Counted from the first letter of the stretch, positions 4,916 through 40,640 are shown. The stretch is 44,513 nucleotides of DNA from a virus (IMGVR_UViG_2703718788_000013); one strand, 5' to 3'. Notes: generated from the sequence alone by a model not told the origin. A program made the numbers and translations.

Positions 4916-5137
4916 TCACCATGACTCTGCTTTTACAGGTAAACCATCACGACCAAGGAAGACTTTTATCATGGTTTCCTTAATACAGTGTTGTGTGGAA
5001 AAATCACGAATATAGAGCCGTTGTTTTTTAATGTTGTTTACCGAAGCAATATATGTTCTTCCTTTATGAATAACATAATCACCGGGAGTCACGCACTGAC
5101 GAGGAATCTCATCAGTTCCGAAGTGATGAGCAATCAT
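4916..5137 (-). CDS. KilR-like small protein (putative cell-division inhibitor), 73 aa
   Basis: ORF-track 4916..5149; GGAG ribosome-binding site favours internal ATG at 5137 ([12 protein letters not shown]...); size and position next to exonuclease gene match Rac kilR; identity recalled from memory only. Confidence 0.5.
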
Positions 5138-5311
5138 AATTATCTCCATTTTTACAAATGAACTTTGTTGATGCGGTGCCTGGTGCCTCCAGGTGACGTT
5201 AACCAGTTAACAATTAACGCCGGATACAGAGAATCCACCCATAACACTGTTTTTGGTTTTAACTGTTCCGCGTGCGCTTAGCCGCATTCACCGCATCACA
5301 AAATTCACTTT

Positions 5312-5369
5312 AAAAAGGGCGGCAGAGCAGTCACGGAGTAAAACTGATACCGCCAAACGCCACCAGAAA
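5312..5369 (-). ncRNA. dicF: DicF-like small RNA (ftsZ translation inhibitor family) with intrinsic terminator
   Basis: Minus-strand sequence TTTTCTGGTGGCGTTTGGCGGTATCAGTTTTACTCCGTGACTGCTCTGCCGCCCTTTTT matches the remembered E. coli DicF sequence with one mismatch; GGCGG...CCGCC stem then U-run; no ORF in the region. Confidence 0.7.
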
Positions 5370-5705
5370 ATTGATAACAGAGGGCGTTGTAGCGGGGTTG
5401 TCACTTAAGCGTATGGTCAACCTGACAACCCGGTGTCCTCAACGGGGAAGGAATAACCCCGCCATACTTACCGCCGCGCCATTTCGCGGAGTGCCACAAC
5501 CGGAAGCGCACGGTCGAATTAAATTTAACGACACCGTACAGAGAGACCAATTTCGCCGTGCGCTTTCGCGTTATGCCTTGGCTTTTCAGGGATATATCCT
5601 TTCAGTAAACTGTCAGTACCGGATTCTTATCCGTGTCCGGCGCACGACCACACGTGACAGCGTGTTGGTCTCCATTTTTAACCCAGAACCTCAATGGAGG
5701 ATAAA

Positions 5706-5915
5706 ATGCCAAACAAAAAAAGAAATCCGCTTATTGAAAAACAGATTGAATGCCTGGTAAATCAACTCAGGCAATCAGGGTTATTAAAAACTCATTCAGA
5801 GTTGAGGCTCACAGAATCAGCATTCGACGATAAATTAAATAATGTCCTTTATAATGGCATTATTGATTTTAATCGTTCTGTTGGTCGCCGCGGCCCTGCT
5901 GGTGTTTCCTTATAA
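5706..5915 (+). CDS. Hypothetical 69-aa protein, encoded antisense to the early-left operon
   Basis: ATG at 5706 preceded by GGAGG 5 nt upstream; ORF-track 5694..5915. Confidence 0.45.
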   Translation: MPNKKRNPLIEKQIECLVNQLRQSGLLKTHSELRLTESAFDDKLNNVLYNGIIDFNRSVGRRGPAGVSL

Positions 5916-6554
5916 TTACCAGTCAATCCAGAGCGGACCGTGTTCAGCGTAAATATAACTGTACACATCCAGATTATATTTGTGGTCTGTTAAGAACAGG
6001 CCGCAAATACATGCCGAAGCTTCCAGGGCAGCGGCTCTGTTACTGAATAACCATGTAGCAACATTCCAGCGTTTTTCTGCATCCCAGTCTTTCTCAAGGC
6101 CTGATACCATGAAGAAACCGTTAGTGTTGCCATCAAATAATTCTGTTTCCAGATTTTTAAGCAATGCCTGATGGACTCTTGCCAGGTATTCCGCCGGAAT
6201 TTCGCCACGAATTCTGATGAGATTGTCATAAACAAACATGTTCCCCGCATATGGCGATTTTTCTTTCTTGTTTTTTAAACCAGCATCATGAGCAAACTGA
6301 TCAATTTCTTCTTCCGTTGGTTTCGTATTGATGTTTTGCGCTGTCGTTTCTGCAATTTTATTTGCCACACTCTCTGAGTCGTGTTTATTTACAGACGCAC
6401 AGAAATACAATCCGGTAAACGCATCGCGCACATTACGAGCCATATTATCAGTGTCTTTTTTCGTTACCGATTCCAATGCAAGTTCGTTCAGACGATGACG
6501 AAGTGTGTGTGCTGCAATCTCCTGGATTGAAGTAGGTAAATCTTTAAATTCCAT
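5916..6554 (-). CDS. Hypothetical early-left protein, 212 aa
   Basis: ORF-track 5916..6566; ATG at 6554 (MEFKDLPTSIQ) has GAGG 7 nt upstream and follows the stop of the upstream ORF. Confidence 0.6.
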   Translation of the reverse strand: MEFKDLPTSIQEIAAHTLRHRLNELALESVTKKDTDNMARNVRDAFTGLYFCASVNKHDSESVANKIAETTAQNINTKPTEEEIDQFAHDAGLKNKKEKSPYAGNMFVYDNLIRIRGEIPAEYLARVHQALLKNLETELFDGNTNGFFMVSGLEKDWDAEKRWNVATWLFSNRAAALEASACICGLFLTDHKYNLDVYSYIYAEHGPLWIDW

Positions 6555-6565
6555 CGTCAACCTCA

Positions 6566-6796
6566 TCAGTCAGAGTTTCTTGCTAACCAGCGATGCGCGC
6601 CAGCTTCGGTTTTAAACGTTTTACTTTTGGTATACGTCATCGCGGTGAACGTGCCGTCCTGGTTGGGAAACACGCCGTACACCAGAGATTCGTTGTTGCC
6701 AAGATCGATAGTATCCATGCTGACCTCATTTCCCCTTAACGCCGGGGTAGCGGAACAAAAACCTGCTGCATAGTTAAAGTTGAACCCTGCCGTCAT
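6566..6796 (-). CDS. Hypothetical early-left protein, 76 aa (first gene after putative pL)
   Basis: ORF-track 6566..6796 minus; tightly coupled to downstream ORF. Confidence 0.5.
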   Translation of the reverse strand: MTAGFNFNYAAGFCSATPALRGNEVSMDTIDLGNNESLVYGVFPNQDGTFTAMTYTKSKTFKTEAGAHRWLARNSD

Positions 6797-6987: not shown

Positions 6988-7662
6988 TCAGTCTAAATAT
7001 TGATGTATTTGTGAAACTTTACCTTTAATAGTGTAACCACCATTCAGTTCAATGGGTTTGTAAAGCGGATTCAGTGACAGCAGATAGATGTTTGGTCCGT
7101 CAATCGCAACTTTTTTTAGTGTTACGTTCGGCGTTCCTTCCAATTGGATTAAGATTATTTTTCCCACCAGTTCTCTAATGTTACTTGAGCATGGCGTGAT
7201 CAGCACGGTAGATCCGTCGGGGATGGTTGGGAGGCCGTTAGAGTTCGTCATCGCATCTCCCTCAACGCGCAATAAAAAAGAGTTTTCAGCGGTTTTTGTC
7301 ATGACATCAACCCAATTCTTAATACCAGGAATCTCGGTTACTGGGCAACTCATATCCCAATAACCAGCCTGTTCCCACGTTAAAACGGGCAACCGGGCGA
7401 TGTTGTCACTAATGTAAAGGTACTGATTCAGACGCAGATCGTCGGTTTTATCGTGACCATCCTTTCCATAAAGAATCCATTCAGGAGATTTGGAAAGCAA
7501 TTTTGACAGCAGATGCAAATTCTCACCGTCAGGTTTTGAAGAGCCATTTTCCCATTTTGTTACGGATACGCGAGATATGCCGATTGCTTTCGCAACCTGC
7601 TGTTGAGTTAGTCCAACGTCTTTTCGACGATTCCGAATACGTTCGCTGATAGTGTTTTTCAT
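6988..7662 (-). CDS. cI: CI-like repressor (HTH_XRE N-terminal domain plus S24 LexA-like C-terminal domain)
   Basis: ORF-track 6988..7761; C-terminal region aligns by eye with lambda CI (VEGDAMT versus VEGNSMT, TLKKV versus TFKKL, QAG linker); start placed at ATG 7662 to leave a 91-bp operator region before cro (ATG 7704 is an alternative). Confidence 0.8.
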   Translation of the reverse strand: MKNTISERIRNRRKDVGLTQQQVAKAIGISRVSVTKWENGSSKPDGENLHLLSKLLSKSPEWILYGKDGHDKTDDLRLNQYLYISDNIARLPVLTWEQAGYWDMSCPVTEIPGIKNWVDVMTKTAENSFLLRVEGDAMTNSNGLPTIPDGSTVLITPCSSNIRELVGKIILIQLEGTPNVTLKKVAIDGPNIYLLSLNPLYKPIELNGGYTIKGKVSQIHQYLD

Positions 7663-7724
7663 GTAACCAATGTTACCACCAAGTGATGTTACTGTGGTTG
7701 ACATCTTTATGTAACTATTGTTAC
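7663..7724. promoter_or_regulatory. OR-like operator region with GTAAC-N4-GTTAC palindromes between cI and cro
   Basis: GTAACCAATGTTAC at 7663-7676 and GTAACTATTGTTAC at 7711-7724, plus a GTTAC half-site near 7688; divergent cI/cro starts flank it. Confidence 0.55.
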
Positions 7725-7753
7725 CCTTTTGTTCGAAATAACAGGAGAGTTTT

Positions 7754-7969
7754 ATGTTCAAAGATGATGTTCTGCGCTATTTCAAAAAAAAGCGACTAGT
7801 AGCTGAGGCTCTTGGAATTTCACATGTGGCTGTTGTGCGGTGGAAAGCAGTTATTCCCAAACTTCGCGCAATGGAGCTGGATGAAATTACTAACGGTGAA
7901 TTGAAATACAATCCAGAACTTTACAAGAAGCAGGATAGCACCTCGAACGAAGGAAAGAATGATTCATGA
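7754..7969 (+). CDS. cro: Cro-like small HTH regulator
   Basis: 71-aa ORF divergent from cI, AGGAG ribosome-binding site at 7743-7749; HTH-like segment RLVAEALGISHVAVVRWK. Confidence 0.7.
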   Translation: MFKDDVLRYFKKKRLVAEALGISHVAVVRWKAVIPKLRAMELDEITNGELKYNPELYKKQDSTSNEGKNDS

Positions 7970-11775: not shown

Positions 11776-11986
11776 TTTCATATTGGCGAGGTAACGGTAG
11801 TTAAGTAGAATGGCTGTGGGTGCTTGAGGCTATCTGCCTCGGGCATGAACACCAACGGCAGATAGAGAAAAGCCCCAGTTAACATTACGCGTCCTGCAAG
11901 ACGCTTAACATTAATCTGAGGCCAATTTCATGCTAGACACATGTAGGTTAGCCTCTTACGTGCCGAAAGGCAAGGAGAAGCAGGCT

Positions 11987-12142
11987 ATGAAGCAGCAAAA
12001 GGCGATGTTAATCGCCCTGATCGTCATCTGTTTAACCGTCATAGTGACGGCACTGGTAACGAGGAAAGACCTCTGCGAGGTACGAATCCGAACCGACCAG
12101 ACGGAGGTCGCTGTCTTCACAGCTTACGAACCTGAGGAGTAA
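11987..12142 (+). CDS. hok: Hok/Gef-family type I toxin
   Basis: 51-aa product MKQQKAMLIALIVICLTVIVTALVTRKDLCEVRIRTDQTEVAVFTAYEPEE, near-identical to remembered HokD/RelF; AAGGAGAAG ribosome-binding site; 8-bp hairpin at 12151-12170. Confidence 0.85.
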   Translation: MKQQKAMLIALIVICLTVIVTALVTRKDLCEVRIRTDQTEVAVFTAYEPEE

Positions 12143-14907: not shown

Positions 14908-14983
14908 GGCCCTTTAGCTCAGTGGTGAGAGCGAGCGACTCATAATCGCCAGGTCGCTGGTTCAAATCCAGCAAGGGCCACCA
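14908..14983 (+). tRNA. tRNA with CAT anticodon, ileX-like (tRNA-Ile2 or Met)
   Basis: 76-nt cloverleaf, acceptor GGCCCTT/AAGGGCC, anticodon loop CTCATAA, CCA end; resembles remembered E. coli ileX. Confidence 0.8.
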
Positions 14984-14984
14984 A

Positions 14985-15061
14985 CCGCCACTAGCTCATC
15001 AGGAAAGAGCGTCAACCCTTTAAGTTGAGTGTGCGAGGTTCGAGTCCCCGGTGGCGGTCCA
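14985..15061 (+). tRNA. tRNA-like gene, apparent anticodon TTT (Lys-like), non-canonical features
   Basis: Acceptor CCGCCAC/GTGGCGG, anticodon stem TCAAC/GTTGA, loop CCTTTAA (C at position 33), T-loop TTCGAGT, CCA end; A-C mismatch in T-stem. Confidence 0.55.
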
Positions 15062-15063
15062 GT

Positions 15064-15139
<76 letters not shown>

Positions 15140-15142
15140 TAT

Positions 15143-15217
<75 letters not shown>

Positions 15218-32572: not shown

Positions 32573-33270
32573 TGCAGGATATCCGGCAGGAAACACTGAA
32601 TGAATGCACCCGTGCGGAGCAGTCGGCCAGCGTGGTGCTCTGGGAAATCGACCTGACAGAGGTCGGTGGAGAACGTTATTTTTTCTGCAATGAGCAGAAC
32701 GAAAAAGGTGAGCCGGTCACCTGGCAGGGGCGACAGTATCAGCCGTATCCCATTCAGGGGAGTGGTTTTGAGCTGAATGGCAAAGGCACCAGTACGCGCC
32801 CCACGCTGACGGTTTCTAACCTGTACGGTATGGTCACCGGCATGGTGGAAGATATGCAGAGTCTGGTCGGCGGAACGGTGGTCCGGCGTAAGGTTTACGC
32901 CCGTTTTCTGGATGCGGTGAACTTCGTCAACGGAAACATCGATGCAGACCCGGAGCAGGAGGCGATCAGCCGCTGGCGCATCGAACAGTGCAGCGAACTG
33001 AGCGCGGTGAGTGCGTCTTTTGTACTGTCCACGCCGACGGAAACGGATGGTGCTGTTTTTCCGGGACGTATTATGCTGGCCAACACCTGCACCTGGACCT
33101 ATCGCGGCGATGAGTGCGGTTATAACGGTCCGGCGGTCGCGGATGAATATGACCAGCCAACGTCCGATATCACGAAGGATAAATGCAGCAAATGCCTGAG
33201 CGGTTGTAAGTTCCGCAATAACGTCGGCAACTTTGGCGGCTTCCTTTCCATTAACAAACTTTCGCAGTAA
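32572..33270 (+). CDS. L: Minor tail protein L
   Basis: 232 aa, lambda gpL-like. Confidence 0.95.
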   Translation: MQDIRQETLNECTRAEQSASVVLWEIDLTEVGGERYFFCNEQNEKGEPVTWQGRQYQPYPIQGSGFELNGKGTSTRPTLTVSNLYGMVTGMVEDMQSLVGGTVVRRKVYARFLDAVNFVNGNIDADPEQEAISRWRIEQCSELSAVSASFVLSTPTETDGAVFPGRIMLANTCTWTYRGDECGYNGPAVADEYDQPTSDITKDKCSKCLSGCKFRNNVGNFGGFLSINKLSQ

Positions 33271-33274
33271 TCCC

Positions 33275-34018
33275 ATGACAGAGACAGAATCAGCGATTCT
33301 GGCGCACGCCCGGCGATGTGCGCCAGCGGAGTCGTGCGGCTTCGTGGTAAGCACGCCGGAGGGAGAAAGATATTTTCCCTGCGTGAATATCTCCGGTGAG
33401 CCGGAGGATTATTTCAGGCTGTCGCCGGAGGACTGGCTGCGGGCAGAGATGCAGGGTGAGATTGTGGCGCTGGTCCACAGCCACCCCGGTGGTCTGCCCT
33501 GGCTGAGTGAGGCCGACCGGCGGTTGCAGGTGCAGAGTGATTTGCCGTGGTGGCTGGTCTGCCGGGGGGCGATTCACAAGTTCCGCTGTGTGCCACATCT
33601 CACCGGGCGGCGCTTTGAGCACGGGGTGACAGATTGTTACACGCTGTTCCGGGATGCTTACCATCTGGCGGGGATTGAGATGCCGGATTTTCATCGTGAG
33701 GATGACTGGTGGCGTCACGGTCAGAATCTCTATCTGGATAATCTGGAGGCCACAGGGCTGTATCAGGTGCCGTTGTCATCAGTACAACCGGGTGATGTGC
33801 TGCTGTGCTGTTTTGGTTCATCGGTGCCAAATCATGCCGCTATTTACTGTGGTGACGGCGAGCTGCTGCACCATATTCCTGAACAACTGAGCAAACGAGA
33901 GAGGTATACCGACAAATGGCAGCGACGCACACACTCCCTCTGGCGTCATCGGGCATGGCACGCATCTGCCTTTACGGGGATTTACAACGATTTGGCCGGC
34001 GCATCGACCTTCGTGTGA
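33275..34018 (+). CDS. K: Tail assembly protein K (NlpC/P60-like)
   Basis: ATG at 33275 (MTETESAILAHARRC...), lambda gpK-like. Confidence 0.9.
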   Translation: MTETESAILAHARRCAPAESCGFVVSTPEGERYFPCVNISGEPEDYFRLSPEDWLRAEMQGEIVALVHSHPGGLPWLSEADRRLQVQSDLPWWLVCRGAIHKFRCVPHLTGRRFEHGVTDCYTLFRDAYHLAGIEMPDFHREDDWWRHGQNLYLDNLEATGLYQVPLSSVQPGDVLLCCFGSSVPNHAAIYCGDGELLHHIPEQLSKRERYTDKWQRRTHSLWRHRAWHASAFTGIYNDLAGASTFV

Positions 34019-34587
34019 AAACGGGGGCTGAAGCCATCCGGGCACTGGCCACACAGCTCCCGGCGTTTCGTCAGAAACTGAGCGACGGCTGGTATCAGGT
34101 ACGGATTGCCGGGCAGGATGTCAGCACGTCCGGATTAACGGCGCAGTTACATGAGACTCTGCCTGATGGCGCTGTGATTCATATTGTTCCCAGAGTCGCC
34201 GGGGCCAAGTCAGGTGGTGTATTCCAGATTGTCCTGGGAGCAGCCGCCATTGCCGGATCATTCTTTACCGCCGGAGCCACCCTTGCAGCATGGGGGGCAG
34301 CCATTGGGGCCGGTGGTATGACCGGCATCCTGTTTTCTCTCGGTGCCAGTATGGTGCTTGGCGGTGTGGCCCAGATGCTGGCCCCTAAACCCAGAACTCC
34401 CCGCACACAAACAACGGATAACGGTAAGCAGAACACGTATTTCTCGTCACTGGACAACATGGTTGCCCAGGGCAATGTTCTGCCTGTTCTGTACGGTGAA
34501 ATGCGCGTGGGGTCACGTGTTGTCTCTCAGGAGATCAGCACGGCAGACGAGGGGGACGGTGGTCAGGTTGTGGTGATTGGTCGTTGA
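33916..34587 (+). CDS. I: Tail assembly protein I
   Basis: 223 aa, lambda gpI-like, overlapping the 3' end of K as in lambda. Confidence 0.9.
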   Translation: MAATHTLPLASSGMARICLYGDLQRFGRRIDLRVKTGAEAIRALATQLPAFRQKLSDGWYQVRIAGQDVSTSGLTAQLHETLPDGAVIHIVPRVAGAKSGGVFQIVLGAAAIAGSFFTAGATLAAWGAAIGAGGMTGILFSLGASMVLGGVAQMLAPKPRTPRTQTTDNGKQNTYFSSLDNMVAQGNVLPVLYGEMRVGSRVVSQEISTADEGDGGQVVVIGR

Positions 34588-34647
34588 TGAAAAACGTTTT
34601 ATGTGAAACCGCCTCAGGGCGGTTTTGTCGTTTCTGGAGCGAGAGGA

Positions 34648-37600
34648 ATGGGTAAAGGCAGCAGTAAGGGGCATACCCCGCGCGAAGCGAAGGACAACCT
34701 GAAATCATCCCAGCTGCTGAGCGTGATAGACGCCATCAGTGAAGGGCCGATTGAAGGTCCGGTGGACGGATTAAAAAGTGTGCTGCTGAACAGTACGCCG
34801 GTGCTGGACAGTGAGGGGAATACCAATATCTCCGGTGTCACGGTGGTGTTCCGGGCAGGTGAGCAGGAGCAGACACCGCCGGAGGGATTTGAATCCTCCG
34901 GTTCAGAAACCGTTATCGGTGCAGAATTAAAATATGACAATCCGCTCACCCGGACCATCACGTCGGCAAACATCGACCGTCTGCGCCTGACCTTCGGTGT
35001 GCAGGCACTGGTGGAAACCACTTCAAAGGGGGACCGGAATCCGTCGGAAGTCCGCCTGCTGGTTCAGATACAACGTAACGGTGGCTGGGTGACGGAAAAA
35101 GACATCACCATTAAGGGCAAAACCACCTCACAGTATCTGGCCTCGGTGGTGGTGGATAACCTGCCGCCGCGCCCGTTCAGTATCCGGCTGCGCAGGATGA
35201 CGCCGGACAGCACCACAGACCAGCTGCAGAACAAAACGCTCTGGTCGTCATACACCGAAATTATCGATGTGAAACAGTGCTACCCGAACACGGCACTGGT
35301 CGGCGTACAGGTGGATTCGGAGCAGTTCGGCAGCCAGCAGGTGAGCCGTAATTATCATCTTCGCGGGCGCATTCTGCAGGTGCCGTCGAACTATAACCCG
35401 CAGACGCGGCAATACAGCGGTATCTGGGACGGAACGTTAAAACCGGCATACAGCAACAACATGGCCTGGTGTCTGTGGGATATGCTGACCCACCCGCGCT
35501 ACGGCATGGGGAAACGTCTTGGTGCGGCGGATGTTGATAAATGGGCGTTGTATGCCATCGGTCGGTACTGCGACCAGTCGGTACCGGATGGCTCTGGCGG
35601 CACGGAGCCGCGCATCACCTGTAATGCGTACCTGACCACACAGCGCAAGGCGTGGGATGTGCTCAGTGATTTCTGCTCGGCGATGCGCTGTATGCCGGTA
35701 TGGAACGGGCAGACGCTGACGTTCGTGCAGGACCGGCCATCGGATAAGGTGTGGACCTATAACCGCAGTAATGTGGTGATGCCGGATGATGGCGCGCCGT
35801 TCCGCTACAGCTTCAGCGCCCTGAAGGACCGCCATAATGCCGTTGAGGTGAACTGGATTGACCCGAACAACGGCTGGGAGACGGCGACAGAGCTTGTTGA
35901 AGATACGCAGGCCATTGCCCGTTACGGTCGTAATGTTACGAAGATGGATGCCTTTGGCTGTACCAGTCGGGGGCAGGCACACAGAGCCGGGCTGTGGCTG
36001 ATTAAAACGGAGCTGCTGGAAACGCAGACCGTGGATTTCAGCGTGGGCGCAGAAGGGCTTCGCCATGTACCGGGCGATGTCATTGAAATCTGTGATGATG
36101 ACTATGCCGGTATCAGCACCGGCGGGCGCGTGCTGGCGGTAAACAGCCAGACCCGGACGCTGACGCTCGACCGTGAAATCACGCTGCCATCCTCCGGCAC
36201 CACGCTGATAAGCCTGGTTGACGGAAATGGCAATCCGGTCAGCGTGGAGGTTCAGTCCGTCACTGATGGCGTGAAGGTAAAAGTGAGCCGTGTTCCTGAC
36301 GGCGTTGCCGGATACAGTGTATGGGGGCTGAAGCTGCCGATGCTGCGCCAGCGCCTGTTCCGCTGCGTGAGTATCCGTGAGAACGACGACAGCACGTATG
36401 CCATCACCGCCGTGCAGCATGTACCGGAAAAAGAGGCCATCGTGGATAACGGGGCGCACTTTGACGGCGACCAGAGTGGCACGGTGAATGGTGTCACGCC
36501 GCCAGCGGTGCAGCACCTGACCGCAGAAGTCACCGCAGACAGTGGGGAATATCAGGTGCTGGCGCGCTGGGACACGCCGAAGATGGTGAAGGGCGTGAGC
36601 TTCCTGCTTCGCCTGACCGTGGCAGCGGACGATGGCAGTGAGCGGCTGGTCAGCACGGCCAGGACGACGGAAACCACATACCGCTTCACGCAACTGGCAC
36701 TGGGAAATTACAGGCTGACAGTCCGGGCGGTAAATGCGTGGGGACAGCAGGGCGATCCGGCATCGGTATCGTTCCGGATTGCCGCACCGGCAGCACCGTC
36801 GCGGATTGAGCTGACGCCGGGCTATTTTCAGATAACCGCCACGCCGCATCTTGCGGTTTATGATCCGACGGTACAGTTTGACTTCTGGTTCTCGGAAAAA
36901 CGGATTGCTGATATCAGGCAGGTTGAAACCAGCGCGCGTTATCTTGGTACGGCGCTGTACTGGATAGCCGCCAGTATCAATATCAAACCGGGCCATGATT
37001 ATTATTTTTACGTTCGCAGTGTGAACACCGTTGGCAAATCGGCATTCGTGGAGGCTGTCGGTCAGCCGAGTGATGATGCATCAGGCTATCTGGATTTTTT
37101 CAAAGGCGAGATAGGGAAAACCCATCTGGCTCAGGAGCTGTGGACGCAGATTGATAACGGTCAGCTTGCGCCTGACCTGACTGAAATCAGGACGTCCATA
37201 ACGGATGTCAGCAATGAAATAACACAGACCGTCAATAAGAAACTGGAAGACCAGAGTGCAGCGATCCAGCAGATACAGAAGGTTCAGGTTGATACAAATA
37301 ATAACCTGAACAGCATGTGGGCAGTGAAGCTGCAGCAGATGCAGGATGGACGCCTTTATATTGCGGGTATCGGTGCCGGTATTGAGAACACCCCCGACGG
37401 CATGCAGAGTCAGGTGCTGCTGGCGGCAGACAGGATTGCGATGATTAATCCTGCGAATGGCAACACAAAGCCGATGTTTGTTGGTCAGGGCGATCAGATA
37501 TTCATGAACGACGTGTTCCTGAAGCGTCTGACGGCCCCGACCATCACCAGCGGCGGCAATCCTCCGGCATTTTCCCTGACACCGGACGGGCGCCTGACGG

Positions 37601-38145
37601 CGAAAAACGCTGATATCAGCGGTAACGTGAATGCGAACTCAGGAACGCTCAACAATGTCACGATAAGTGAGAACTGTACGATTAAGGGCATGCTGGAGGC
37701 GACCCAGGTCAGAGGGGATTTCGTTAAAGCTGTATCAAAAGCCTTCCCGAAAAAAGTCGGTACGTGGGGTAACACGGAAACACCAGACGGTACGGTTACA
37801 GTCACCATCAGCGATGATCATAACTTTGACCGTCAAATCATTATTCCGCCCATTATTTTTAACGGTATAGCGTATACCGATCCGGGGAGCGGAAATAACC
37901 CCGGAGGCACGCGATACACGGGTTATGGTTTTGAAGTTCGCAAAAACGGCGTATTAATCGCATCCAGAGAAACTAAAGGGGCCATTCCCGGTAGTTACAG
38001 TGCGGTTATTGATATGCCGGGTGGCAGGGGAAGCGTCACTCTGGAGTTTAAGATTTACCAGAAAGGCAATCAGGGGGCAGGCAATATCACCGACTGTACG
38101 GTGATTGTGACCAAAAAAGCGGCTTCCGGCATCAGTATCCGTTGA
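34648..38145 (+). CDS. J: Central tail fiber / host specificity protein J
   Basis: 1165 aa from ATG 34648 ([20 protein letters not shown]...); lambda gpJ-like for about 950 aa, then a C-terminal region that does not resemble lambda J. Confidence 0.95.
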
Positions 38146-38166
38146 AATATTTATAACCCGATAACG

Positions 38167-38190
38167 GGCGCCAGAAATGGCGCCTTTTTT
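38167..38190 (+). terminator. Intrinsic terminator after J
   Basis: GGCGCC AGAAAT GGCGCC followed by TTTTTT. Confidence 0.7.
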
Positions 38191-38205
38191 ATTTGTGGAG
38201 TGAGT

Positions 38206-39519
38206 ATGGCAGTACAGATTTCAGGTGTACTGAAAGATGGTGCAGGTAAGCCGATACAAAACTGCACCATTCAGCTAAAGGCCAGACGTAACAGCACCAC
38301 GGTGGTGGTGAACACGGTGGCTTCAGAAAACCCGGATGAAGCCGGGCGTTACACAATGGACGTTGAGTACGGTCAGTACAGCGTCATTCTGTTGGTGGAG
38401 GGATTTCCGCCGTCACATGCCGGGACCATCACCGTGTATGAAGATTCTCAGCCGGGTACGCTGAATGATTTTCTCGGTGCCATGACGGAGGAGGATGTCC
38501 GACCGGAGGCACTGCGCCGTTTTGAACAGATGGTGGAGGAGGCAGCGCGTCACGCTGAGGAGGCGAAGAAGAATGCCGGAGAGGCAGAGACGTCAGCGAG
38601 GAATGCGGGTATATCAGCCGGCCAGGCGGAAAAGAGTGCAGTAAATGCTGAGACTTCAGCAGGGGATGCATCGGAGTCAGCCCGGCAGGCGACGGAAAGT
38701 GCAGCCTCAGCAAAGCAGTCAGAGGATGCGTCCTCGTCCTCGGCTTCTGCGGCCGCTCAAAAAGCCAGTGAGTCATCACAAAGTGCAGCAGAAGCTGAAT
38801 TGTCAAGAAAGACGGCAGAAAGTGCAGCCGGTAATGCATCCAGGGATGCAACGACCGCAGCAGAAAAAGCCCGGGAGTCAGCAGAAAGCGCACAGTCAGC
38901 GGAACAAAGCAGGATAGCGGCGGAAGAGGCCGTAAACCGAATCCCCACCGTGGTGGGACCTCCCGGGCCAAAGGGGGAACAGGGGCCCGCTGGCCCTCAG
39001 GGGCCGAAGGGTGATAAGGGAGAGCGTGGTGACACCGGCCCTGTCGGGGCAACCGGCGAACGGGGACCGAGAGGAGATACAGGTCCGGCAGGCCCGCAGG
39101 GGCCGAAAGGCGACAGGGGGGAACGGGGAGAGACCGGTCTGACGGGAAGTACAGGTCCACAGGGGCCAAAGGGAGATACCGGTGCAGCAGGCCCGGCAGG
39201 CCCACAGGGACCGAAAGGAGAAACAGGAGCGGCAGGTCCGGTGGGGGCTACCGGACCTCAGGGGCCGAAGGGAGACCCGGGCGAGACACAAATCCGTTTT
39301 CGTCTGGGGCCGATGAGCATTATTGAGACAAACAGCTATGGCTGGTTCCCGGATACAGATGGTGCGCTCATCACCGGACTGACCTTTCTTGACCCCAAAG
39401 ATGCCACACAGGTTCAGGGGATGTTTCAGCATTTGCAGGTCAGATTTGGTGACGGGCCGTGGCAGGATGTTAAGGGGCTGGATGAAGTGGGCAGTGATAC
39501 AGGCAGAACAGGAGAATGA
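38206..39519 (+). CDS. stf: Side tail fiber protein (lambda Stf-like N-terminus, collagen-like Gly-X-Y repeats)
   Basis: 437 aa; N-terminal about 90 aa resemble lambda Stf ([26 protein letters not shown]...); long GPxGxxG repeat tract between residues about 245 and 350. Confidence 0.85.
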
Positions 39520-39999: not shown

Positions 40000-40590
40000 A
40001 TGCCATTGATAACATCCAGCCTTTCATCAAATGTTGCTTTGCAGAGTATTGAAATATTACGTGAAGCTGCCAGACAAAACCTGATTACGAAAGCTATTAC
40101 TATAAATGGGCAGAAAGTTGGTATTCATTATTATCACCGCCCTGACGTTTTTCTAGTTTCTGGTTGTAAGGATGGGATGTTAAAAACATTATTAGAGTTA
40201 GGGTTAAATGGTAGCAATGAGTCAGCCAAAAGGCTTCGTTCATGGCAAATTTCCTCTGTAATTGATACTCATCTGAGTTTTTTACCATTAGGTATATGCT
40301 ATAAAATACTTTCAAGTTCTTTTCCTGTACATTCGGAAGAGGTTTTTTTTCCAGAAGAACATCTCAAGTGTCCAATAATATTAGATGCTCCAGATAATGG
40401 TGTTTTTATAAAGAACTCTGTAAGTGCAAAAGTTTGTAACCTATATGATAAAAATGCAATGTTAAAGTTAGTTATATCTGGTTCTCCACATCCATTAAGT
40501 AGAGAGCCAATAACAGAATCAATGATTATGAGAAAAGATGAATGTTATTTTGATCCCAAAACAGAGTCTTTTGTTGTAAATGATGTTTAA
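40000..40590 (+). CDS. nleG: NleG-like type III effector (U-box E3 ubiquitin ligase family)
   Basis: 196 aa in AT-rich DNA; C-terminal region HLKCPIILDAPDNGVFIKNSVSAKVCNLYD...SPHPLSREPIT resembles NleG U-box domain as remembered. Confidence 0.6.
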   Translation: MPLITSSLSSNVALQSIEILREAARQNLITKAITINGQKVGIHYYHRPDVFLVSGCKDGMLKTLLELGLNGSNESAKRLRSWQISSVIDTHLSFLPLGICYKILSSSFPVHSEEVFFPEEHLKCPIILDAPDNGVFIKNSVSAKVCNLYDKNAMLKLVISGSPHPLSREPITESMIMRKDECYFDPKTESFVVNDV

Positions 40591-40640
40591 TTTTTTTATT
40601 GGTGTTACTTTTAGTGGACTAAGTTGAAGGAGTGCGATAA

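Follow-up and report, generated by a model that had tools for sequence, protein, structure and literature searches.

Covariation supports a pseudoknotted RNA domain upstream of DicF that recurs in lambdoid phages and phage P1

DicF is among the oldest known bacterial small RNAs (sRNAs), and in the literature found the 340 nucleotides (nt) ahead of it are treated as plain untranslated spacer. In the Qin prophage of Escherichia coli K-12, transcripts end at the DicF terminator, namely the 53-nt DicF itself and a 1146-nt ydfABC-dicF RNA, and no internal promoter is present (PMC10448788, Ragunathan 2023). Northern blots and primer extension in the same study identified a 190-nt DicF species with a ribonuclease (RNase) III-dependent 5'-end, which accumulates in stationary phase and increases upon inactivation of RNase E, the enzyme required for the 53-nt form; these results agree with Faubladier 1990 (PMC10448788). 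A 72-nt DicF species has also been described (PMC5069750). Here we report on the corresponding region of the viral sequence IMGVR_UViG_2703718788_000013, whose whole length of 44,513 nt is referred to as the window, with a focus on the segment 5370-5915. A sequence-only reading had noted in this segment a stretch free of open reading frames (ORFs) but rich in inverted repeats, followed by a small gene oriented against the operon. All features it listed were recovered, at slightly shifted coordinates. The ORF-free stretch serves the DicF-kil portion of the early-left (pL) operon as a non-coding leader, and its core is a conserved RNA domain (Table 1).

The locus is almost a copy of the studied K-12 region, of which the processing through RNase III as well as RNase E is already known. 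The gene-free gap of 340 nt between ydfC and dicF also exists in K-12 Qin, and Fig. S1 of PMC10448788 displays the same sequence as our segment. From 5369 to about 5646 the window aligns to K-12 without gaps, and near 5646 the homology stops. Identity amounts to 100% in the linker (5369-5385), 97.4% in the domain (5386-5500), and 98.1% in DicF, and to 97% in the spacer downstream of DicF (5130-5316). It is 76.9% in the hairpin preceding the domain, 86% at 5576-5646, and 44% at 5646-5705. The segment lies on the same strand as DicF, directly on its 5'-side, and is homologous to the K-12 spacer, as would be expected for a DicF precursor. When 190 nt are counted back from the DicF 3'-end, K-12 position 1649245 is reached, which by the gap-free alignment equals about 5506 in the window; this position is a calculated one, based on the length of the K-12 species. 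It falls into the 3'-arm of the hairpin, 6 nt ahead of the next helix. K-12 and the window thus have in common the placement relative to DicF, an identity of 97-100% across 5369-5500, a hairpin where the RNase III-made 5'-end maps, and an identical linker at the RNase E site. They differ beyond 5646, where the window carries a gene of 216 amino acids (aa) and the antisense 69-aa gene and K-12 carries ydfB-ydfC, and downstream, where dicB is found in K-12 and kil in the window. The K-12 region has been termed a long untranslated region or 3'-untranslated region (3'-UTR), and no conserved fold is described there, older accounts possibly aside.

On the DicF strand, the 115-nt domain between linker and hairpin is a four-way junction that also contains a loop pseudoknot. 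The consensus structure was derived by RNAalifold from a MAFFT alignment of 16 representatives with identities to the window copy down to 65%, and the pseudoknot was added by hand beyond the RNAalifold helices. In this alignment 95.7% of the cells are paired and 8 pairs changed on both sides, compared to 1.8 +/- 1.2 in shuffles (0 out of 500 reached 8). Sliding the partner columns reduced pairing to 33-57%. A model-guided alignment of 65 copies contained 96.9% paired cells and 24 cells with two-sided changes, compared to 3.2 in shuffles. Compensatory changes occur in four helices plus the pseudoknot, which pairs in 16 out of 16 sequences, with GCAUGG/CCAUGC in phage P1 as a two-sided change. 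For the variable hairpin H2, at least five helix sequences could be read directly, e.g. CGGGG/CCCCG, CUGGG/CCCAG, CAGGUG/CACCUG, and CAGGGG/CUCCUG. The 9-bp stem of the sequence-only reading (5395-5403/5423-5431) is 100% complementary in an inverted-repeat search and represents one helix, H3, of this covarying domain, which bears out the suggestion that a second RNA resides in the 5'-flank of DicF.

When the window copy is folded on its own, its minimum-energy structure equals the comparative one. Folding of the minus strand was weak for the whole segment (421 nt, z = -1.5) as well as for the domain alone (125 nt, z = -1.5), and strong for the 84-nt hairpin (z = -3.07, 0 out of 200 shuffles as stable). 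Hence, it is the covariation among relatives rather than thermodynamics (z about -1.5 on the transcribed strand) that lifts the structure of the domain above chance. The most highly conserved bases are those of loops and junctions (GGUAAG, CAGGUUGACCAU, ACACC), which is typical of RNAs that take up a tertiary structure or interact with a specific partner. A covariance-model scan of 901-nt and 209-nt slices against Rfam 15 at relaxed thresholds gave a sub-threshold match of STnc100 to the spacer next to DicF, and the domain obtained chance-level scores only (mascRNA, 14.3 bits; gut-2, 11.2 bits). A transfer RNA (tRNA)-like or transfer-messenger RNA identity was tried as well, and ARAGORN found none. 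Each locus contains a single copy, in the window as in 64 other loci, and no second copy was present in the early-right operon. The fold, its conservation independent of DicF across phage P1 and lambdoid groups, and its constant pairing with a terminator are undescribed in the literature found, though earlier accounts may exist.

That the region represents a decayed protein gene or chance structure devoid of own function is hardly credible. It would be in line with the low thermodynamic score of the domain, with 'hypothetical proteins' annotated over the region in some phage records, and with a mechanical 129-aa ORF with TTG start across the region on the plus strand (5371-5760). To the letter, the latter contradicts the earlier description of 5370-5700 as ORF-free; in substance the description holds, since this ORF has no Pfam or PHROG match and its frame is not kept. 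Among relatives, open stretches over the core vary between 48 and 166 codons, and in the variable hairpin the copies are set apart by indels of 1 or 4 nt. The compensatory changes in four helices and the pseudoknot argue against this explanation, as does the presence of the 125-nt core in 4315 out of 5426 complete E. coli genomes (~80%), in up to 8 copies and with 90-100% identity. No feature was annotated over the core among the matches listed.

The functional RNA is assigned to the minus strand because G-U pairs are frequent in closing helix P1; at two positions UG (37) occurs along with UA (22), and GU (45) along with GC (14). Such pairs would turn into A-C mismatches if the plus strand were the RNA. 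A function of the plus strand, either as promoter and 5'-UTR of the small antisense gene or as an antisense RNA to the DicF precursor, therefore appears very improbable. Some observations would suit it: 5300-5720 folds with z = -3.13 on this strand and 5640-5705 with z = -2.67, a bulged hairpin is followed by a run of five T (5646-5679), a promoter-like site is located at 5207-5234, and the antisense gene requires an upstream promoter, of which none was found adjoining it. However, promoter-like matches were no better than in shuffles, inversion of the hairpin goes along with a degraded T run, and the domain is kept in phage P1, cdtI, and K-12, all of which lack the antisense gene.

The domain is not confined to the neighborhood of DicF. 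Distant BLAST searches of the segment against phage records resolved it into modules, and a block of about 5378-5500 recurred independently, in phages P1 and P7 and in P1-like plasmids (77-82% identity) and furthermore in phages cdtI, Ayreon, and 2H10, Stx2c phages, and Salmonella phage F1055. Scanning IMG/VR with a pattern in which suspected pairing positions were left free yielded more than 120 loci with 68 distinct cores; a DicF pattern scan of a one-genome-per-species collection found only 7 loci. In phage P1 the domain is situated in the leader of the C1-controlled ban operon, starting ~27 nt after the P1ban promoter and ahead of a long operon. The P1 GenBank record contains an overlapping annotation, 'dicF-like region'; a similarity at sequence level has therefore been noticed earlier. 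In cdtI, Ayreon, and Stx2c phages the gene order is cI, its terminator, a near-consensus pL (TTGACA-16-CATAAT in cdtI and Ayreon), a leader, and the first early-left gene, with no N gene. This untranslated leader of ~590 nt holds hairpin, domain, and terminator. Leaders of cdtI, Stx2c, and Salmonella phages, like the P1 ban leader, contain the domain without canonical DicF. At two further loci, L099 and L064, the domain unit precedes IsrK-C4-antirepressor-kil-recE. Here the genes for IsrK and the C4 antisense RNA follow the domain-terminator unit directly and on the same strand; they are adjacent at L099 1171-1359, L064 4732-4920, and also L012 40-228.

Conserved features flank the domain on both sides. 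A GC-rich hairpin with a U run follows in 14 out of 14 downstream groups (133 copies), starting about 8-35 nt past the closing helix, and the tail and terminator hairpin vary by group (canonical DicF, DicF-like, cdtI, F1055, and P1 types). Behind the same domain, six loci (L015, L031, L064, L099, L119, and L042) have differing single-stranded tails and terminator hairpins, none of which was called by the Rfam DicF model at its gathering score. These RNAs in the position of DicF may be DicF-like sRNAs with other targets. On the 5'-side a long hairpin adjoins the domain in 10 out of 12 upstream sequence groups, although built from two unrelated stem sequences, GCGAAAGCGCACGG/CCGUGCGCUUCCG and GAUGAGAGCAC/GUGCUCUCUUC. 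The groups without it are a deletion variant and phage P1, in which the distance from the P1ban promoter is ~27 nt. In the window, the inverted repeat GCGCACGG (5506-5513) and CCGTGCGC (5556-5563) mentioned in the sequence-only reading turned out to be the core of 20-nt arms (5501-5520/5549-5568) with 80% complementarity. The 5'-end of the K-12 190-nt species maps into this stem, in agreement with the processing sites that had been suspected in the 5'-flank of DicF. Upstream of the hairpin, conservation of the leader in phage records reaches window position 5646, and its CCGGA/UCCGG hairpin was seen in computed folds. A direct repeat (5472-5495/5554-5577, 75% identical) makes the H1 region of the domain resemble the 5'-arm of the hairpin. 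The variant L064, which lacks the hairpin and the 5'-strand of the closing helix, looks like a deletion between the two repeat copies.

We tentatively favor, with slightly less than even confidence, a released, end-defined structured non-coding RNA of ~150-190 nt, in which the domain would form the body controlling release or presentation of a 3'-tail. As judged from the gene order, a pL transcript would cross the 216-aa gene and then the antisense strand of the 69-aa gene. The hairpin of ~75 nt (5575-5501) would form and, by analogy to the K-12 homolog, be cut by RNase III near 5506. The 115-nt four-way junction with its pseudoknot (5500-5386) would then adopt the fold that the covariation shows, and a share of transcription would halt at the DicF terminator as in K-12, giving an RNA of ~190 nt. 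A cut by RNase E in the 17-nt linker, known from K-12, would separate the 53-nt DicF from a structured RNA of ~137 nt. The 3'-tail would thus be DicF in this prophage and another or a minimal tail in other phages, and the conserved loops and junctions imply that the domain has a specific partner. A discrete molecule is suggested because conserved features set both of its ends, the terminator at the 3'-side and the hairpin at the 5'-side wherever upstream RNA exists. Furthermore, the tails between domain and terminator differ among groups, which fits sRNA seeds, and the 190-nt RNA of K-12 is discrete and accumulates, which we also count in favor of a released RNA.

Several points weigh against a released RNA. 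In phage P1 and cdtI only ~8 nt and ~12 nt, respectively, separate domain and terminator; no obvious seed is found there, and the domain itself must therefore carry the function in these phages. Conservation is higher in the domain than in DicF, and within the domain it peaks at unpaired bases. All copies are sense-oriented within an early operon and none is free-standing, to which a cis-acting leader would fit as well. The processing steps were established in K-12 rather than in this prophage, and the role of the domain is inferred. To our knowledge, there is no Hfq-type sRNA with such a 5'-body.

Operon-embedded sRNA precursors that are matured through RNase III or RNase E, for instance 3'-UTR-derived sRNAs, and phage RNAs from leaders, for instance C4 of phage P1 and CI of P4, resemble the proposed RNA in being cut by host RNases from a longer early transcript and in ending with a terminator hairpin, and C4 and CI are located in early leaders, too. 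In contrast, each of these folds into one hairpin or a small cloverleaf-like structure and has a defined antisense seed, whereas the domain unit combines a conserved, tertiary-structured body of 115 nt with a variable tail and does not match the Rfam C4 model.

A cis-acting role has its closest described counterpart in the put RNAs. Like the domain, HK022 putL and putR and the putL-like RNA of HK639 are structured RNAs for which no gene of a partner protein exists, and they are located in sense orientation past an early promoter and before terminators in lambdoid phages without N. The put RNAs promote read-through of terminators in cis, for which the beta' zinc-binding domain is required. By analogy, the domain might bind the RNA polymerase that transcribes it and cause read-through of the adjacent and of later terminators, by which early-left genes would be expressed in phages without N, an explanation that is possible but doubtful. 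In cdtI, Ayreon, Stx2c phages, and the P1 ban leader the domain follows an early promoter, and N is lacking. The ~590-nt leaders of cdtI and Ayreon behind a near-consensus pL, the start of the domain just past the P1ban promoter with a long operon downstream, and its placement ahead of IsrK-C4-ant-kil-recE in L099 and L064 would suit such a device, as would the annotation of our prophage, in which Q is present, N is not annotated, and at least two terminator-like sites lie ahead of the recE-like gene. On the other hand, the put RNAs consist of two stem-loops of ~70 nt (PMC9378689), a different architecture from the 115-nt junction with pseudoknot. Neither the early region of HK022 (best score, 11.6 bits) nor HK639 33000-38500, where the putL-like RNA is annotated (34187-34312), gave a significant match to the covariance model of the domain, and in sequence the domain and put are dissimilar, too. 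Also unlike put, the domain unit has an immediate terminator, functional in K-12, and a preceding RNase III hairpin. K-12 transcripts stop at the DicF terminator right after the domain, a conserved hairpin for 5'-trimming is of no obvious use to an element bound to polymerase, and in the window the domain is more than 1 kb away from pL. The wider proposal, in which antiterminator or terminator-control RNAs that act in cis and need no protein form a new class in lambdoid phages without N (Rac/Qin, cdtI, Stx2c) and in the P1 ban operon, is a shade more doubtful. If it holds, the domain would be the missing early antitermination device and DicF a by-product of a controlled terminator.

The layout also recalls a transcriptional riboswitch, namely a covarying, aptamer-like domain with pseudoknot and several helices that sits in an untranslated leader and precedes an intrinsic terminator of varying sequence. 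That the domain binds a metabolite, ion, protein, or tRNA, as an aptamer would, and sets the adjacent termination is nevertheless improbable. The 5'-arm of the upstream hairpin begins with CAUAAC, CACAAC, or UGCAAC, each of which is able to pair with GUUGUG, the 5'-strand of closing helix P1, and an alternative fold is thereby conceivable. However, this competing helix is located upstream rather than in the expression platform, and in computed equilibria closing helix P1 wins over it; it would count only kinetically or before the RNase III cut. Inspection by eye of the DicF, cdtI, F1055, and P1 types disclosed no conserved antiterminator pairing between domain and terminator arms, no riboswitch family was matched in Rfam, and the downstream genes do not suggest a ligand.

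The domain is a candidate for two questions, how early transcription passes terminators in lambdoid phages without N and which purpose the 190-nt 'long DicF' serves. With its covariance model, thousands of prophages could be annotated.

Table 1. Coordinates of features in the window; paired segments of the domain are given in the direction of the transcribed minus strand.
Feature	Position	Strand	Remarks
CI/LexA-type repressor gene	6988-7761	minus	early-left operon, first in order
DUF1391/ydfA-like gene	6566-6796	minus	early-left operon
216-aa gene	5916-6566	minus	PHROG 2151
69-aa protein gene (probable), WP_001133037.1, PHROG 4274	5706-5915	plus	against early-left operon
Untranslated leader 5' of DicF	5369-5705	minus	between 216-aa gene and DicF
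Start cassette of putative antisense cargo gene, 60 nt	5646-5705	plus	hairpin 5646-5670, then five T at 5675-5679
Upstream conserved leader	5576-5645	minus	includes hairpin CCGGA/UCCGG at 5619-5640
RNase III-type hairpin	5501-5575	minus	directly 5' of domain; core stem 5569-5549/5520-5501
Conserved 115-nt RNA domain	5386-5500	minus	four-way junction and loop pseudoknot
Closing helix P1	5500-5493/5393-5386	minus	
Helix H1	5489-5485/5478-5474	minus	
GGU/ACC helix, 3 bp	5472-5470/5434-5432	minus	
Variable hairpin H2	5461-5457/5447-5443	minus	
Helix H3	5431-5423/5403-5395	minus	9-bp stem of the sequence-only reading
Loop pseudoknot GUAUGG/CCAUAC	5467-5462 with 5416-5411	minus	
Single-stranded linker GCCCUCUGUUAUCAAUU, 17 nt	5369-5385	minus	100% identical to K-12; adjoins DicF 5'-end
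DicF sRNA and terminator hairpin	5317-5368	minus	Rfam RF00039, 76.4 bits, E = 3e-15
STnc100-like DicF-kil spacer	5130-5316	minus	RF02076, 38.3 bits, gathering score 47
kil	4916-5137	minus	early-left operon, 3' of spacer
recE-like exonuclease gene		minus	after kil in early-left operon

The DicF neighbor assumed in the sequence-only reading is well supported by its match to the Rfam family (76.4 bits). In the RefSeq record of the identical genome, NZ_CP039404.1, no DicF gene is annotated at 5317-5368 despite this score, and the record contains a 'partial DicB' pseudogene at 5164-5247, within the non-coding spacer. This DicF-kil spacer is bracketed by a long-range duplex of 28 nt (5151-5178/5289-5316), found by inverted-repeat search, of which the distal arm starts directly after DicF. 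From its position, the duplex is likely the RNase III site that makes the 3'-end of the 72-nt DicF. Over the full model length the spacer matched STnc100 with E = 1.3e-6; it appears to be related to this family although its score stays below the gathering threshold of 47 bits. A triple TTAAC repeat that had been reported along with the structured segment is indeed present (5199-5203, 5207-5211, and 5214-5218), yet it is located outside the segment, in this spacer. A further STnc100-like match was observed in phage P1 (L011 3842-3961), just upstream of tciA. The STnc100-like element may be a shared leader of the division-inhibitor genes dicB, kil, and tciA.

The small ORF on the opposite strand is probably a real gene, as its comparison with homologs suggests. 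It was found together with the strong ribosome-binding site that had been noted for it (GGAGGA, 5696-5701), and it matched phrog_4274, a family without known function, over positions 1-69 of 69 (E = 1.2e-51). ORF, ribosome-binding site, start, stop, and length are retained in homologs of 85-89% DNA identity, and substitutions in the homolog L125 are concentrated at third codon positions (15 compared to 7 and 7). A Salmonella homolog of equal length shares 77% protein identity. AlphaFold2 predicts a simple hairpin of two helices (predicted local distance difference test score 74.5), and no match was obtained in Pfam, NCBIfam, PADLOC, or among folds of the Protein Data Bank. A hydrophobic ORF of 36 aa (5842-5952, plus strand) overlaps the end of the gene and is open in relatives. 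It was considered as a small toxin and rejected; most changes hit its second codon position, and this coincides with the third position in the 69-aa frame. Because this substitution pattern shows no selection on its own frame, the 36-aa ORF is regarded as a by-product of the overlap.

The same start cassette, running up to the ATG, was found at different loci ahead of four unrelated ORFs of 64, 69, 61, and 94 aa. The cassette forms a cargo slot that faces against the early-left operon and, being shared, marks a slot at which these phages recombine small accessory genes. Within the cassette, a stem of CUCCAUU (5670-5676) and AAUGGAG (5693-5699) overlaps the ribosome-binding site. The stem that had been placed around 5650-5680 exists; its position is 5646-5670, and it consists of 9 bp and is bulged. 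In L126, L118, and L025-type loci this hairpin is reverse-complemented between collinear flanks, and in loci with the inverted hairpin the T run is degraded. The hairpin is likely a recombination joint, at which the homology to K-12 Qin ends as well. Promoter-like matches for the 69-aa gene did not exceed the expectation from shuffles, and the sole consensus match (5678-5707) was discarded, as transcription would begin inside the ORF. No terminator of its own was identified either. The gene is comparable to phage morons, which are cargo genes inserted into operons and expressed independently; it is small, has the opposite orientation in an early operon, and shares its slot with alternative cargo. 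The difference is that neither promoter nor terminator was identified here.

The window is a complete lambdoid prophage; it matches E. coli strain 377323_2f with 100% identity, the integration site lying between mtfA and tRNA-Ser. Elsewhere it contains a hok/sok module (11818-11992; sok, 115 bits, and hokD) and, downstream of Q, four phage tRNA genes (Ile, Lys, Thr, and Gly; 14908-15214). At the tail-fibre end (about 40000-44260), it carries type III secretion effector cargo, namely nleC, a HECT-type E3 ligase gene, and nleG.

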